Source: Patescibacteria group bacterium (GTDB lineage: Bacteria; Patescibacteriota; Patescibacteriia; Veblenbacterales; UBA10138). Taken from it: a stretch of 64,000 bases of DNA. The DNA lies in NCBI GenBank assembly GCA_018817715.1, contig JAHITT010000006.1, positions 75,147 through 139,146 of the forward strand, read 5' to 3'. Below are positions 9,016 to 61,694 of the stretch, piece by piece (the first letter of the stretch is position 1; every line of letters starts with the position of its first letter). The translations under genes were made by a program, and so were the position numbers. Below the pieces are notes generated by a model. The model did not search any database, was not told where the DNA came from, and was given only the letters and a program-made list of their open reading frames with translations.

Positions 9016-9019
9016 TTTT

Positions 9020-9059
9020 ATAGGCTTATTCGTACGAATAAGCCTATGATATCCACAGG
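9020..9059 (-). repeat. inverted, diverged copy of the 40-bp palindrome-bearing repeat
   Basis: ATAGGCTTATTCGTACGAATAAGCCTAT (perfect 28-bp palindrome) followed by gatatccacagg; see the copies at 55747 and 61350. Confidence 0.85.
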
Positions 9060-54963: not shown

Positions 54964-55671
54964 ATGAATCTACAAAAATTAATGGAGCATTTTTTTAAAC
55001 TCTACGGCAAAAGAAATAGAATATTCCTGCAAAACTTATTGCAGCGCATAGTCTTTTTAAATCTGGCTATAGCCGATTTACAAGAAGCTATCAGAAAACA
55101 AGCCGACCCAGCTGATTTAAAAATAGCTTTAGCAAGAATAGTGTCTAGAATTTTCTGCGTAGCCGATTACTTTGCTAGCGACCAACTGGCGGTTGTTATG
55201 TCTCAAAAATACCCCAATAGCCATTGCAGTTACTGCCAAAAATTACCTTGTAAGTGTCCAGAAAAAAGACCTAGCAGTATATTAACAAATCCAAACCCTA
55301 CTCAACTGAACTGGACCTTAAAACAATGGTGCCGACATTTTAAAAAAATCTACGGCGCTAAAAATAAATCCAAGGGTCTTGAAAATATTCTTAACCGCTT
55401 GTTCAAGGAAATAAGCGAACTATTGATACTAGCTATGAAAACTCCCAGCACTTTTTCCGCCCATACAACCATAGACGACATAGAAATAGAATTTTCCAAA
55501 GAACTAGCTGATACTCTAGCCTGGACAATAGCTATAGCCAATTTATTGACAGTTGATTTAGAACAAGCTGTTTTGGAACGTTATGGTAATGGCTGCTGGA
55601 AGTGTCATAACACTACCTGTACCTGCACGGAATTCAATTATGACCAAGTGTTTTGGCCATCGGTAAAATAA
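54964..55671 (+). CDS. tandem MazG-like helical domains, each ending in a CX2CX4CXC knuckle
   Basis: Internal duplication. Repeat 1 ends HCSYCQKLPCKC. Repeat 2 carries KELADTLAWTIAIANLLTVDLEQAVLERYG (MazG-like) and ends CWKCHNTTCTC. Confidence 0.5.
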   Translation: MNLQKLMEHFFKLYGKRNRIFLQNLLQRIVFLNLAIADLQEAIRKQADPADLKIALARIVSRIFCVADYFASDQLAVVMSQKYPNSHCSYCQKLPCKCPEKRPSSILTNPNPTQLNWTLKQWCRHFKKIYGAKNKSKGLENILNRLFKEISELLILAMKTPSTFSAHTTIDDIEIEFSKELADTLAWTIAIANLLTVDLEQAVLERYGNGCWKCHNTTCTCTEFNYDQVFWPSVK

Positions 55672-55746: not shown

Positions 55747-55786
55747 CCTGTGGATAACATAGGCTAATTCGTACGAATTAGCCTAT
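55747..55786 (+). repeat. 40-bp repeat, left copy (TGTGGATAA motif plus 28-bp perfect palindrome)
   Basis: cctgtggataacATAGGCTAATTCGTACGAATTAGCCTAT; identical 40/40 to 61350-61389. Confidence 0.95.
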
Positions 55787-55793
55787 AAAGAAA

Positions 55794-56687: not shown

Positions 56688-59429
56688 TTATTCTTTATCA
56701 AACAATGTTGGCTTCTGTCCGTTTGTAAATTCTTCGGTTGCCAATTCCTTGTGGCGTAATTCGTCATATCCCTCAAAATCGCTCACGCTCGCAATTTTAA
56801 CTGCCTTGAACCCTCTTTTTTCCATTGCCTTGTCCACGAGGAAAAAAGTTTGAACGCCGCCCTCTTTTTCTAAAAGTTTTAGGGCTTTCTTGCGGTCATC
56901 AATTTGTTTCGCTTCGGCAAGATGCTTGCCTTTAACATCAACGACTATCCACTTGCCTTCGATAAACGCAAGAAAGTCCGGATAAAATGGTGCTGGCTTT
57001 ACTTCAACGGGATACTCAAAAGGATCATTTCTAACCCAAAAACTTTTCTTTTTCTTGTCCAATGAACAAAGATGCTCCAAAGCGTCAGCGACCCATTTTT
57101 CGGGCGGCGAATCAAACTTTACAAACGGACGAGCAGAAAATTTATATCCTTCAACAATAATACCTTTCTGCTGTAAGTGCGAGGACATGGGTTGATGAGA
57201 AGGAATCAAGTTGAGAGTAAGTCCGTCTCGTTTTCTAACAGTAATTTTGCCATCCACAAAAATATCTTTTACATTTTTCTTTCGGAATATAAATTGTCTC
57301 TTGAACATCAATTCAAATGCGCCTTGTCCGTAAAATTCAATAATACTCTTTTTTAGAGCTTTCAAGGCGCGTTTATAGTCCACCGCGTAGGCGGTATCAA
57401 CCTGTATTCCGGCACCAATAATGTTTTCTATCAGCTTCTTTGCAGTATCAAATGAGTTATTTCCGATAAATGAGCCAGTTTGTTCTATAAAATCTAACGC
57501 CCAGCGCGCAATTTCGTTTTTAGGCAAAGCTATTGTTCTGCGGGTAGTCGCTGGCTTGTCAGTCTGCATGGCGATTTCATCAGTTGTAATTTCCGCATAG
57601 TCAATCATTGCCAAAACTTCTGGCTTTAGAACTTTGTCACCCTTGGAAAGCCCGCACACCTCATCAACAAACGCTTTAACGCTTAACGATTGATCTTTTA
57701 GCGCGTCTTCAAAACTTTTACCGGTTGCAGTTGGTTTGATCTGCAAAATTGGAATTTCGTAGTCATCAATAATTTTTCTGTTTACTTTATTCTCGCGGTC
57801 TTCTTCCTCGGTTGGAATTTCAACATTTGCCGGCGACAATGCTAATTTTTGCCGAATTTCTTCTACGATTTGATCAAAGCGGCGGCCCCTCTCGCAAATA
57901 ACATGTAAAATTTCGCTCTGCTCTTTTAGTTCATCGCCCAAAATATCAAACTCCCGTTTTTCTTTGTAAAGTCGGAGACCACGCCCGATAAGTTGGGCCG
58001 CCGCGAGACCAACTTTCTCAACAGTATCGCCCAAAACAACGATTGTATAAAAATTGTCGTAATCAACGCCCTCGGTGAATATACGGACTTGGTTTACAAC
58101 TTCGGCATTATTGTCGTCGAGCGATTGATAATCTGTCCAGACCTCTTCCTCGCTTTTATTTTCGCTATGAATGGTGAAAACAGATTTTGCCACTCGCGAC
58201 AATTTTTTTACTAATTCTGATTTGTTTTTTGGTATATTCGTACGAACAATTTTAGCAATATCGGTTCCTTCACGATTTACTTGTTCCAACACATCATCAA
58301 GCTCGCCCGCAACCGAATCAGGCCAATTTTTGAGATAATCATCAATCGCGTCCGCGTGTTTTATAGTTCTTGCTTTGGTAAGCAACATCGCTTTTTTCAC
58401 TGGCGCGTTAGCGGCGGCAAGCGACTCGGTTTTTAGCAAATGAATCAACATGCCCCAAACCAATTTCTGCTTATCACTATCGGTCACTTCGTCTGAAATT
58501 TTCTCGTCGCTTGTTCCGCAACCAACCGCAAAAATCCTCTTGCCATATCCCTCTCCAATATATCTTTGCATTGGATACTTGTATAAGTTGTCTTGTCCAA
58601 AACTCTCGCTACCACCTTTTTCAAGTGATGTTGCGGTAAATTCCAGCACAGCGCTCGGCAAGAGCTCAAAAATTGCTTCTGCGGTTTTCTTTTGCTGGTA
58701 GTGGTGTGCTTCATCAGAAATAATGACTGGCCGCTTTTCGCGTAAAAATTCCACAAACGATATGGTGTGTTGCCCGCTTTTATCACGCCACAATGATTCT
58801 TCAAGCGGCCGGCGAACATATGGTGTCCCTTTCATTGTATCTTCACCGTCTTTTTTGTTCGATGAAGCCGCTTTATCGTAAAACTTCTGCATGTTGAAAA
58901 CATAGAAAGAAACGTCGCGATCATCTTCGTAATTGCAGGTTTTATCACGATAAGAATTTCCCGTAACCAAGTTGTAGGTTAAATTCCAACCGTCGCCAAA
59001 AATGCTTTTTACTGCGCGCGGCGTAAAGTTTTCTATCGTCTTATCAAACAAAATTGTGTTCGGAGTGAGAATAAGAAAATCTCTAAAACCTCGGTGGTAT
59101 AAGTCCAAAATCGCCGCGCCCATCAAAAGGGTTTTGCCGGAACCGGTCGCCATTTCAAAACCGACCTTATTCCACCCAACAATCTTATCGTCATCGTCTT
59201 TTCCTTGTTGAAGTGTTTTCTGCTTTAAGCTCCGGCTGTCAAACTTGTCTTTCCAAAAAAGTTGAAATGCGCTCAATGCTTCTATTTGATACGGGCGCAA
59301 GGCAAATTTAAGCAAATGCTGTATCTTTTCGTAATTCTCAATCGTTTTTGGCGACGGCGAACCGACGGCAATTTTGTATTGCTGGTCTTGGCTCACTAAA
59401 TCGTAAAATGTTTGCGGTTTTGTTCTCAT
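56688..59429 (-). CDS. res: Type III restriction enzyme, Res subunit (SF2 helicase plus C-terminal PD-(D/E)XK nuclease)
   Basis: LRPYQ, MATGSGKT, DEAHH, TAT and QLIGRGLR helicase motifs; C-terminal YPDFLAF...VVDVKGK; 4-nt ATGA overlap with the mod stop. Confidence 0.85.
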   Translation of the reverse strand: MRTKPQTFYDLVSQDQQYKIAVGSPSPKTIENYEKIQHLLKFALRPYQIEALSAFQLFWKDKFDSRSLKQKTLQQGKDDDDKIVGWNKVGFEMATGSGKTLLMGAAILDLYHRGFRDFLILTPNTILFDKTIENFTPRAVKSIFGDGWNLTYNLVTGNSYRDKTCNYEDDRDVSFYVFNMQKFYDKAASSNKKDGEDTMKGTPYVRRPLEESLWRDKSGQHTISFVEFLREKRPVIISDEAHHYQQKKTAEAIFELLPSAVLEFTATSLEKGGSESFGQDNLYKYPMQRYIGEGYGKRIFAVGCGTSDEKISDEVTDSDKQKLVWGMLIHLLKTESLAAANAPVKKAMLLTKARTIKHADAIDDYLKNWPDSVAGELDDVLEQVNREGTDIAKIVRTNIPKNKSELVKKLSRVAKSVFTIHSENKSEEEVWTDYQSLDDNNAEVVNQVRIFTEGVDYDNFYTIVVLGDTVEKVGLAAAQLIGRGLRLYKEKREFDILGDELKEQSEILHVICERGRRFDQIVEEIRQKLALSPANVEIPTEEEDRENKVNRKIIDDYEIPILQIKPTATGKSFEDALKDQSLSVKAFVDEVCGLSKGDKVLKPEVLAMIDYAEITTDEIAMQTDKPATTRRTIALPKNEIARWALDFIEQTGSFIGNNSFDTAKKLIENIIGAGIQVDTAYAVDYKRALKALKKSIIEFYGQGAFELMFKRQFIFRKKNVKDIFVDGKITVRKRDGLTLNLIPSHQPMSSHLQQKGIIVEGYKFSARPFVKFDSPPEKWVADALEHLCSLDKKKKSFWVRNDPFEYPVEVKPAPFYPDFLAFIEGKWIVVDVKGKHLAEAKQIDDRKKALKLLEKEGGVQTFFLVDKAMEKRGFKAVKIASVSDFEGYDELRHKELATEEFTNGQKPTLFDKE

Positions 59430-61149
59430 AGTAATTTATATTCTCTCAAAATTGCTGCCGGTATCTTTTTTACCATAACGCGATCGTCCAACGAATCTGG
59501 CGGCACGGAAACGGCGACATTGGTAAAAATTGTTAGGTGTTTGAATTTTTCTCTTTCCAATTCGGCAATAATTTTTTCATATAGATCAGCCGTTAGTGTT
59601 TTTACTTCTCTTGAAGCAAAAGAAATGGCGAAATGATAGCGTGCAGATTGGTGCTTGCCGAGATACATACCTTCCTTCTCCACCCACTTCGTCTCTATCG
59701 GTCTGTATTGGAAATGTAAAAATACTGCTTCGGCCATTTCTGCTGCTTTCAGCGACCAATTCATATCTTGTTCATGTATCACGCTCTCGCCTAGTTGGTA
59801 GTATTTGAACCCTCCGCCACCTTTCCAGTTCACATCCTTGCTTATCCCTGTTTGATCTTTCCCAGAGATGATTTTTTGTAGGCGTGGCATGATGAGTTCG
59901 TCAGCGTGACGTCCCATTTCTACCATAATCCAACGACGTTCCATTTTGTGCGCCACGGCTCCCGTGGTCCCAGAACCAGCAAAAGAGTCAAAAACCAAAT
60001 CATTTTTTCAGTCGAGATTGAGATAATACGCTGTATAAGTTTTTCAGGTTTTTTTGATTTGGGAAAGTCAACCCCTCCTTCGCCCGCAATTCCTTCCCAA
60101 GAAATATCGTCCCAAATATCTGTTATCGCCTCTACTGGCAATAGATTTCCATCCACTTCCTGTAATCTTTCTCTATAAAATAGGACTCTCTCGCCCCCAA
60201 TGAATAAATAGTCCATATCATCATTTGGATGTCTAACAATTTTATTCTTGAGTTTGCGCGACTTTTCAAGAGTCTTAATCCTCTTGAGACGAGCTCCACC
60301 AGTAACCGACGCCGTACGAAAGACTCTCTCGGCATTTTTAATTGCAAAAACTCCTCTTTCAGCATTAAATTCATCCTCTCTTAATTCTTTTTTTGCGTCC
60401 CTTGCATTTGAAAATCCAAGCTCTAGCGCCACAACTTCATCAATATTCTTCCATGACCATTTATCTTCTGGTTTTTTTATATCGTCAAAAACCCAACGAT
60501 ATGCTTGATCATATCCCTTTTCAATAAATGTCTTTTTGAATTTCAGTTGAGCAGAGTCTTTTGCGAAAATCAAAAGGTTATTTGCTGATTTGAAAAGCTG
60601 ATTTGAAGTGTGCTTAAAACCAAAAGGACTATTTGCTTTTATAGTCACAGTATTTAGATAATTCTGTCTGCCAAATGTCTCATCAAGCAAAACACGGCAA
60701 TACGCGACTTCTTTATCATCCAAATGTACGAAAAGAATCCCGTCCTTTCTCAAGAGTTTGCGTAGCAGAAACAACCTGTCGCGCATCATTGTTAGCCATT
60801 CAGAATGTTCAAGATTGTCGTCATAGTGTTTGAAGGCGTTCCCTGTATTAAATGGAGGGTCAATATAAATACATTTCACTTTTTCCTTATCCGGTCGGCC
60901 CTTAAACATCTCAACCAAACTTCGCAAAACTAACAAGTTATCGCCCTTGATAAGCATGTTATCGCCTGTCTTGTCGCCAAAGTCTTTGGCAAAGCGTAAA
61001 ATGCGCGGTTCGGCAACGCGAATATCATTTTTCGGCACCCAAACCGGCCGGACACCCTTGCCCTCCTTTTCGTCAATTTCGTAGTAAAGCGAAAGGTCTT
61101 TGTTTATCCAATCCAGCCGTAACGAGCCCTTGTAACTTCTTTTTTGCAT
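59426..61149 (-). pseudogene. mod: Type III DNA methyltransferase Mod (beta-class N6/N4), interrupted by a frameshift in an A6 run
   Basis: The 5' ORF carries motif IV IYIDPPFNTG; the 3' ORF carries motif I DSFAGSGTTG. The frames join if the run at 60003-60008 has 7 A, giving ..ISISTEKNDLVFDSFAGSG.. Confidence 0.8.
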
Positions 61150-61151
61150 AA

Positions 61152-61287
61152 TTACTTTATTAAATCATCTAAGGTAACACTAAGAGCCTTAGCGATTTTC
61201 CGCCAGAGGAGGACAGATTTTAACTATCTCAATAGTCGGATTAGGGGTGGCGCCGGCTTTGATTTTGGCCATAGTTAGCATATTCAT
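61152..61287 (-). pseudogene. decayed XRE-type HTH gene, possible R-M controller remnant
   Basis: A 32-codon ORF reads MNMLTMAKIKAGATPNPTIEIVKI... A second frame ends ...KIAKALSVTLDDLIK*, a typical XRE C-terminus. AAAATC is duplicated around a 16-nt insert. Confidence 0.35.
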
Positions 61288-61349
61288 ATAGCTTTACTAT
61301 ACCAAAAATTACCAAACAAGATAACTAAGCTAAAATCAGCCAAAACCAG

Positions 61350-61389
61350 CCTGTGGATAACATAGGCTAATTCGTACGAATTAGCCTAT
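61350..61389 (+). repeat. 40-bp repeat, right copy
   Basis: Identical to 55747-55786, in the same orientation. Confidence 0.95.
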
Positions 61390-61473
61390 GAGGAAAATTT
61401 AGGCCAAAATTCAAAAAATTATAAAATCCTATCAGATTGCTTCCTCCTTCGCTATCCTCCTTTATTAAAATTT

Positions 61474-61598: not shown

Positions 61599-61623
61599 TC
61601 TTATAAACCATTTATGTACAAAG

Positions 61624-61694
61624 CTGGGAGACATGGATTCGAACCATGATTACCAGGGCCAGAACCTGGCGTCCTACCATTAGACGATCTCCCA
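61624..61694 (-). tRNA. tRNA-Gln (anticodon CTG), CCA not encoded
   Basis: Acceptor tgggaga/tctccca; anticodon arm ccagg-TTCTGGC-cctgg; T arm catgg-ttcgaat-ccatg. Confidence 0.85.

Follow-up and report, generated by a model that had tools for sequence, protein, structure and literature searches.

The 64,000-nucleotide stretch of Patescibacteria (CPR) DNA analysed here (the window) carries what its sequence identifies as a Type III restriction-modification cassette, mod then res, in which mod is interrupted by a single-base frameshift at a run of six A while res is intact. The lesion is probably a sporadic and recent loss-of-function mutation, the first step of pseudogenisation, rather than an evolved contingency locus in its OFF state. 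This reading draws directly on the lesion itself, its uniqueness among relatives, the ordinary character of the tract and the decay of the same family elsewhere. Overall the finding looks like an ordinary one and not like a purpose-built on/off switch. The features of the locus are the following.

59426..61149, minus strand: Type III mod, now a frameshifted pseudogene (574 aa with one base restored); sequence, Pfam, PADLOC and intact homologues
60003..60008, minus strand: A6 run (coding strand; T6 on the plus strand) with one base fewer than in all relatives; alignment
59920..60002, minus strand: out-of-frame tail of the 5' ORF, 27 codons followed by TAG at 59922-59920; translation …STEK MIWFLTLLLVLGPREPWRTKWNVVGLW*
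59426..59998, minus strand: stop-free 3' portion of mod, read in the shifted frame, carrying the conserved C-terminal region and motif I (FAGSGTTG); translation, Pfam and dN/dS
56688..59429, minus strand: res, intact, 913 aa, with an SF2 helicase/ResIII domain and a C-terminal PD…D-x-K nuclease motif (FYPDFLAFIEGKWIVVDVKGK); translation, Pfam, PADLOC and homologues
59426..59429, minus strand: ATGA overlap of mod stop and res start; sequence, with the same 4-nt overlap in relatives
61152..61287, minus strand: remnant of an XRE-type HTH gene immediately 5' of mod; comparison with intact HTH genes

Direct reading of the sequence places the tract, on the coding strand, in the context ...ATC TCG ACT GAA AAA ATG ATT TGG.... 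The 5' ORF (59920-61149, 409 aa) contains IDPPFNTG, and the 3' frame, open from the tract to the TGA at 59428-59426, contains DSFAGSGTTG. An earlier note on this DNA had located the frameshift at the A6 run (T6 at 60003-60008 of the plus strand), with motif IV (DPPFNTG) in the 5' ORF and motif I (FAGSGTTG) in the 3' ORF in a different frame, and the sequence and translations confirm it. One base added to the run restores a continuous Mod of 574 aa (about 575 aa in the note) reading ...RIISISTEKNDLVFDSFAGSGTTG..., with DPPFNTG at residues 97-103 and FAGSGTTG at residues 392-399; removal of two bases gives a protein of 573 aa. The two genes share bases, the res ATG (59429-59427) and the mod TGA together forming ATGA as had been described, and the 4-nt overlap is shared by the relatives L005, L007, L084 and L127-129. 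Res, likewise reported as intact, is read through its 913 aa without any lesion.

The assignment to Type III systems was also correct and is supported by Pfam, PADLOC and the match to EcoP15I Mod. The Pfam profile N6_N4_Mtase is divided between the two mod pieces (profile positions 1-181 in the 5' piece and 185-217 in the 3' piece), and the repaired Mod matches it in a single stretch (profile 1-217, residues 91-418, E=3.7e-41), as it does the PADLOC profile MTase_III (4.3e-115, residues 10-491). Together with dozens of uninterrupted Mod homologues of 573-576 aa, the best of which is 87% identical, these matches place the splitting of mod beyond chance. Res is recognised by Pfam ResIII (2.5e-22) and PADLOC REase_III (7.9e-15) and displays GSGKT (Walker A), DEAH and a C-terminal PDF…DVKGK. 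Its 90%-identity cluster counts 14 members, mostly of 912-913 aa, and the Res proteins of L005 and L007 have 912 and 920 aa; a search of the PDB with Res returned no sequence match. The cassette thus has the components of a Type III system: a beta-class N6_N4 methyltransferase with motif IV on the N-terminal side and motif I on the C-terminal side of the target-recognition domain (TRD), a Res with SF2 helicase/ATPase motifs and a PD-(D/E)xK endonuclease motif, and mod immediately upstream of res in one operon.

The characterised EcoP15I/EcoP1I-type systems share the order mod then res on one strand, a Mod that is a beta-class N6-adenine methyltransferase arranged as motif IV (DPPF), target-recognition domain and motif I (FxGxG), and a Res whose SF2 helicase (ResIII) region is N-terminal and whose PD-(D/E)xK motif is C-terminal. 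EcoP15I Mod (4ZCF; chain 4zcf_A) is the best solved relative, although the similarity is low (E=4e-21) and confined to the motif regions. The locus further differs from these systems by the small XRE-type HTH gene that abuts mod in many members of the family studied here and by the frameshift of mod in this window.

The lesion is the loss of one base, in the short and ordinary A-run or beside it, a little upstream of the AdoMet-binding motif I. The truncated Mod retains the catalytic DPPF motif and the target-recognition domain and, deprived of FxGxG and of the whole conserved C-terminal third, is presumably unable to methylate. The ATGA coupling of mod and res is broken 491 nt upstream of res, probably with loss of Res expression. 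Type III systems cleave DNA in an ATP-dependent manner with Mod providing recognition, and they hemimethylate an asymmetric site. Type III Res acts only in complex with Mod, as in EcoP1I and EcoP15I. Given this dependence and the broken coupling, the whole system is most likely off and harmless to the cell.

The tract was compared across 128 related loci from metagenomes and GTDB genomes, the GTDB representatives scanned being from species other than that of this genome; 121 of these loci cover the tract site in one frame. None of the 121 is shifted at the site, and 120 are free of stops. Alignment with L004, L005, L007, L008, L034, L126 and L127 leaves a single 1-nt gap in the window sequence, inside the A6 run. 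The codons at this position are GAA AAA GAA GAT in L004, GAG AAA AAT GAT in L005 and L006, and GAA AAA GGA in L007, the nearest relatives having interrupted A5 runs, and mod is intact despite longer runs at the site in L008 (A7), L034 (A8) and L126 (A8). The comparison of tract length in relatives that the earlier note had proposed therefore finds the site in frame in 121/121 loci, and the frameshift is private to this lineage. Runs of N account for the apparent frame changes in L082 and L113, which are artefacts. Mod homologues with an aberrant C-terminus were also encountered (P0035, P0037, P0100).

Other members of the family have been inactivated by irreversible lesions. In L083 an 882-bp insertion sequence with an 8-bp target duplication lies in mod and res is intact, the 99.9%-identical L084 being intact. 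L131 carries a 13-nt tandem duplication within the DPPFNTG of mod, and its res has a duplication of about 125 nt and a 1-nt deletion. L075 shows a 4-nt GTAC deletion relative to L018. Four different types of lesion are thus found in mod of this family, whereas res is broken only in L131, where mod is broken too. Within the cassette itself, the HTH gene upstream of mod is already a multi-lesion remnant: only the C-terminal ~40 residues are left, the N-terminal helices are gone, and an excess of ~19-22 bases (around 61194-61221) puts the two halves of what remains in different frames. Intact HTH genes of 65-76 aa stop 3-20 nt before mod in L009, L010, L016-L018, L020-L022, L025, L026, L040 and L075. 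Decay, one of the alternatives raised by the earlier note, is supported by the unconserved and not unusually long tract, the irreversible mod and res lesions of relatives and the HTH remnant. The further lesions that the note had associated with simple decay are present in mod or res of relatives (L083, L131, L075) and absent from this mod and res. The locus resembles in this respect the sporadically inactivated restriction-modification genes that are frameshifted or disrupted by insertion sequences and commonly annotated as pseudogenes. There too a single inactivating lesion sits in an otherwise conserved gene, and the unrelated lesions of the relatives (insertion sequence, tandem duplications, 4-nt deletion) match the pattern; there is no material difference, the one peculiarity of this lesion being that it would be very recent.

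Its recency is suggested by the absence of a second lesion in mod or res of this cassette and by low dN/dS on both sides of the shift (~0.02-0.11, the 3' part against four relatives), well below 1. As dS is saturated against all available relatives (at most 87% amino acid identity), these ratios do not date the lesion and indicate only a gene strongly constrained until recently; with no relative above 87% Mod identity, the time since the lesion cannot be bracketed. The pristine remainder of mod and all of res have also the look expected of a reversible OFF state.

Phase variation was the headline idea of the earlier note. On this reading A6/A7 would act as a slipped-strand switch toggling Mod and, through it, the entire Type III system along with any regulon that depends on its methylation, and the assembly would have caught an OFF majority. 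The comparison of the tract with relatives lends this idea no positive support and argues against it, and we consider it unlikely. Type III mod genes are classic phase-variable methyltransferases, 17.4% of the mod genes in REBASE containing simple sequence repeats (PMC5909438). Like the known phasevarions (modA of Haemophilus and Neisseria, modH of Helicobacter pylori, M.MmyCI of Mycoplasma mycoides), the locus has mod out of frame at a simple run with res intact, and the alleles of the family likewise keep both ends of mod conserved and exchange the target-recognition domains in the middle. The change is moreover of one nucleotide in a homopolymer and stands without a second lesion. However, the known cases use tetranucleotide arrays, G runs of at least 9 or (AG)12. 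The tract measures 6 bases (7 if ON), under the threshold of at least 9 bases applied to mononucleotide tracts in the Type III phasevarion survey (PMC5909438), and the earlier remark that A6/A7 is short for efficient slippage holds. This lowers the possibility of phase variation but does not abolish it, since tracts of G7-G8 are variable in Campylobacter jejuni and Neisseria meningitidis and such short tracts switch at measurable rates in some bacteria without mismatch repair (PMC5909438).

Comparison with relatives and with the rest of the window also speaks against a switch. The run is conserved in no relative, neither in position nor as a length-variable ON/OFF pair, and the relatives with A7 or A8 are all ON. 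Neither in length nor in rarity does it stand out from the genome: over its 64 kb the window contains 290 A/T runs of at least 6 (4.5 per kb), 98 of at least 7 and 24 of at least 8, and mod itself has three further A7 runs, all in frame. Other members of the family were inactivated by non-repeat lesions. An ON version of the same allele was sought by exact look-up of the A7 (574-aa) and A4 (573-aa) products, and neither occurs among ~15 billion proteins, which is weak evidence on the coexistence of ON and OFF forms since the index covers consensus assemblies alone. The loci closest in Res, L127-L130, have different TRD alleles. Many reduced genomes lack mismatch repair. Slippage at a run of background length might then serve as a population-level ON/OFF switch of the Type III system and the methylome in a CPR episymbiont possibly devoid of mismatch repair, a proposal slightly less credible still than phase variation in general. 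If true, an uncultured lineage would have a 'phasevarion without a dedicated repeat'.

The earlier note had held a sequencing or assembly error to be at least as likely as phase variation. The consensus of a long-read assembly typically errs by indels in homopolymers, and just one population or read set is demonstrably behind the assemblies. Yet the window is 100% identical to the ENA contig ERZ27247128 k141_780464 (531 kb), whose k141_ name points to a MEGAHIT short-read assembly, and to a separately built Logan contig from SRR6514274, A6 included. As the two assemblies possibly share one read set, their agreement confirms the consensus and not independent populations, and a minority of A7 may coexist with the A6 of the consensus. 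ORF fusion upon a 1-nt change was also scored at every A/T run of at least 5 and G/C run of at least 4 in the window (835 runs), the fusing pairs being checked by Pfam. The A6 tract is the sole run that splits a gene. None of the other 834 (97 A/T runs of at least 7 among them) does so, and all other fusing ORF pairs are distinct complete genes, by which systematic homopolymer error in the window was rejected. A true A7 with an intact mod is thus very improbable. Both mod pieces are found in JGI, ENA and Logan and are absent from NCBI, where Res is present as MBU1039305.1, which fits with NCBI calling mod a pseudogene.

Alternatively, the base could have been lost not by replication slippage but when a target-recognition cassette was exchanged and recombined imprecisely at its 3' edge; mod would be a pseudogene all the same, of different origin. 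The locus is mosaic in composition: identity to L127 is 90-96% over the initial ~200 nt of mod and throughout res, the stretch 60750-60000 is unalignable to L127 and ~80% identical to L004-type alleles, and alignability to L127 resumes at 60001, beside the tract. Nor was the lost base necessarily an A, as GAA AAA GAT GAT (EKDD, frequent in the family) minus its G gives the observed sequence. A sharp breakpoint at the tract is nevertheless unsupported, because identity to L127 climbs gradually (61, 69, 74 … 90%) over ~500 nt past the tract with no sharp step, and L004-L008, of the same TRD type, are colinear and in frame across the site. This origin appears as improbable as a sequencing error.

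The least probable explanation is recoding, in which the A-run would still yield full-length Mod, through programmed -1 frameshifting of the ribosome or slippage during transcription, or the two pieces would act together as a split enzyme. The tRNA-Lys on AAA could slip back one base on A AAA A to give ...TEKND..., the same as the A7 product, but no relative requires a frameshift at the site, the zero frame has no X XXY YYZ heptamer and no structure is found downstream (MFE z-score +1.1, 177/200 shuffles folding as well), and programmed frameshifting was rejected. For RNA polymerase to slip efficiently, A6 is a short run. Translation of the 3' piece on its own was rejected as well: the TTG at 59998 is merely the first possible start codon of its frame, no Shine-Dalgarno-like sequence precedes the TTG or the ATG, and gene callers place the start at Met19, past motif I.

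A fresh pseudogene calls for the locus to be annotated as one Type III restriction-modification cassette with a frameshifted mod pseudogene, instead of the two ORFs (409 aa and 172 aa) now in protein databases, and the finding has little significance beyond annotation. Were A6/A7 heterogeneity true, the locus would gain interest as an example of phase variation through a short tract in a CPR bacterium. The comparative pattern is a tidy example of a known principle, namely that in Type III systems mod can go first without self-restriction.

The Type III mod gene of this CPR genome is most probably a pseudogene of an ordinary kind, frameshifted recently. The relevant features are the following.

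61152-61287, minus strand: remnant (135 nt) of an XRE-type HTH gene, directly upstream of mod
59920-61149, minus strand: 5' ORF of mod, 409 aa, with IDPPFNTG
60008-60003, minus strand: A6 run of the coding strand, T6 on the plus strand

The coding strand within 59300-61300 includes ...ATC TCG ACT GAA AAA ATG ATT TGG TTT TTG ACT..., and at the A6 run the 5' ORF departs from the conserved sequence, continuing for 27 out-of-frame codons up to a TAG. A second frame, which includes DSFAGSGTTG, is open between the run and the TGA at 59428-59426. Adding one base yields a 574-aa protein with ...RIISISTEKNDLVFDSFAGSGTTG..., and the mod TGA and the res ATG share an ATGA overlap. Sequence and repair thus agree with the earlier note on the two ORFs, their motifs, the A6 junction, the continuous repaired reading and the overlap. 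The lost base could be explained by either of two parent sequences: GAA AAA AAT (EKND), now missing an A, or GAA AAA GAT (EKDD, frequent in the mod family), now missing a G.

The locus is a Type III restriction-modification cassette. The Pfam domain N6_N4_Mtase is divided across the two mod pieces (profile positions 1-181 and 185-217) and is matched once by the repaired Mod (profile 1-217, E=3.7e-41), which PADLOC assigns in one stretch (residues 10-491) to MTase_III (4.3e-115). Its top solved relative is the EcoP15I Mod (4zcf_A, 4e-21). Res was recognized by PADLOC as REase_III (7.9e-15) and carries a Pfam ResIII domain; a PDF…DVKGK motif can be seen in its C-terminal part, and it had no sequence match in the PDB.

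The repaired Mod has thousands of homologues, the top match being 87% identical; the best 33 are uninterrupted, 565-584 aa long and mostly from Parcubacteria/CPR. Related loci (L numbers) were compared from metagenomes (79) and GTDB genomes (42), with several more reached via Res. The site was covered in one HSP by 121 of the 128 non-self loci, 120 of them without a stop, and no frame shift at the A6 site was found among these loci. In the alignment, the window shows one 1-nt gap, inside the A6 run. Codons at the site vary between relatives and are not conserved.

Codons at the A6 site in related loci
L004: GAA AAA GAA GAT, intact
L005/L006: GAG AAA AAT GAT, intact
L007: GAA AAA GGA, intact
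L008: ACA AAA AAA GGA (A7), intact
L034: GAA AAA AAA GAT (A8), intact
L126: AGT AAA AAA AAT (A8), intact

The homologous proteins P0035, P0037 and P0100 have early ends and aberrant C-terminal residues (e.g. ...FASREVKTILQVYTKK...), possibly because they too are frameshifted alleles or because their contigs end there.

Phase variation through the tract, offered in the earlier note, is the main rival and is unlikely. The tract fails on length, conservation among relatives and excess over background. A survey of the Type III mod genes in REBASE counted mononucleotide tracts only from 9 bases, and it mentions that in C. jejuni and N. meningitidis G7-G8 is able to vary (PMC5909438). The window (64 kb, 36.7% G+C) contains 290 A/T runs of at least 6 (4.5 per kb), 98 of at least 7 and 24 of at least 8, and three more A7 runs lie in frame inside mod itself; the A6 tract is not special against this background. 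The same note's remark that A6/A7 is short for switching therefore holds, but the switch itself found no support in relatives, where the codons vary, A7 and A8 alleles are intact and none is shifted. The exact A7 (574 aa, one base added) and A4 (573 aa, two bases removed) products were not found among ~15 billion proteins.

An assembly error, which the note had set beside decay as at least as likely as phase variation, is very improbable. The window is 100% identical, A6 included, to the ENA contig k141_780464 of ERZ27247128 (531 kb, MEGAHIT-style naming) and to a 5.6-kb Logan contig independently assembled from SRR6514274. When all 835 homopolymer runs of the window were checked for ORF fusion on a 1-nt change, the other fusing pairs were all distinct, complete genes; the lack of a second homopolymer-split gene makes systematic homopolymer error unlikely. 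The 409-aa and 172-aa mod pieces are present in JGI, ENA and Logan and absent from NCBI, where Res is MBU1039305.1 ('Patescibacteria group bacterium'), which would fit NCBI treating mod as a pseudogene.

The missing base is equally improbable as a recombination scar. The locus (56688-61149) is mosaic. L127, a contig that was binned with Bacteroidota (GCA_023381535.1), shares 90-96% identity with res and with the initial ~200 nt of mod. The target-recognition segment (60750-60000) belongs to another allele type: it is unalignable to L127 and shares ~80% identity with L004. Identity to L127 returns gradually, however, and not at the tract. Res proteins >90% identical occur on 1.2-3.5 Mb contigs and in CPR MAGs, and together with the mosaic this suggests that the cassette spread horizontally and swapped target-recognition domains. 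Recoding is the least credible reading, since no relative needs a shift at the site, a slippery heptamer is absent and no structure lies downstream (z=+1.1).

No second lesion was found in mod or res of the window, and dN/dS is 0.02-0.11 on either side of the shift (versus four relatives; dS saturated), which places the frameshift as recent relative to the split from any available relative. Decay, the remaining alternative of the note, is matched by irreversible lesions in relatives. The 90%-identity cluster of Res has 14 members. One lineage shows three cassette states: in L084 both mod (579 aa) and res are intact; L083 (99.9% identical) carries an 882-bp IS in mod with an 8-bp target duplication and an intact res; L131 (99.4-99.9% identical to L084) has a 13-nt tandem duplication within the mod DPPFNTG codons, and its res has gained a ~125-nt duplication and lost 1 nt. 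In addition, L075, a separate allele, has a 4-nt GTAC deletion in mod versus the intact L018 (93.5% identical).

In many Type III relatives, mod starts 3-20 nt after the end of a short gene for an XRE-type HTH protein of 65-76 aa, an arrangement that resembles the controller (C) proteins known from Type II systems. At least 12 relatives (L009, L010, L016-L018, L020-L022, L025, L026, L040, L075) have this gene intact and abutting mod. The remnant in the window keeps only the equivalents of residues ~28-69, without the N-terminal helices, in two frames split by roughly 19-22 extra bases. The gene is absent from the nearest relatives, L004-L008, so its loss alone is no sign of a dead system.

The neighbourhood contains further elements.

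61623-61694, minus strand: tRNA-Gln(CTG) gene between dnaX and the cassette, ~470 nt upstream of mod
61361-61390, 55758-55787 and 9019-9048: copies of a 30-nt perfect palindrome
54964-55671, plus strand: 235-aa ORF with two Cys-rich motifs (HCSYCQKLPCKC and CWKCHNTTCTC)

The tRNA gene is a typical neighbourhood for island integration, and L005 carries a serine recombinase gene immediately upstream of its mod. The palindrome (CATAGGCTAATTCGTACGAATTAGCCTATG), followed by the DnaA box-like (T)TATCCACAGG, occurs in three copies versus 0 expected by chance; in the copy at 9019, paired A-to-T and T-to-A changes keep it palindromic. Two same-orientation copies flank the block of HTH remnant, mod, res and inositol-phosphatase gene, and the Logan contig breaks at both. 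Operator, terminator and REP-like repeat are candidate roles. The Cys-rich ORF, located between the second copy and a VTT-domain gene, had no Pfam match.

Judging from its motifs, the truncated Mod, deprived of motif I and of the conserved C-terminal third, would neither bind AdoMet nor methylate. Type III Res depends on Mod for recognition, so knocking out mod does not kill the cell. In all three broken relatives (L083, L131, L075) mod is disrupted. That the ATGA overlap is conserved points to translational coupling of mod and res; with ribosomes now expected to terminate 491 nt upstream of res, Res synthesis is probably lower too.
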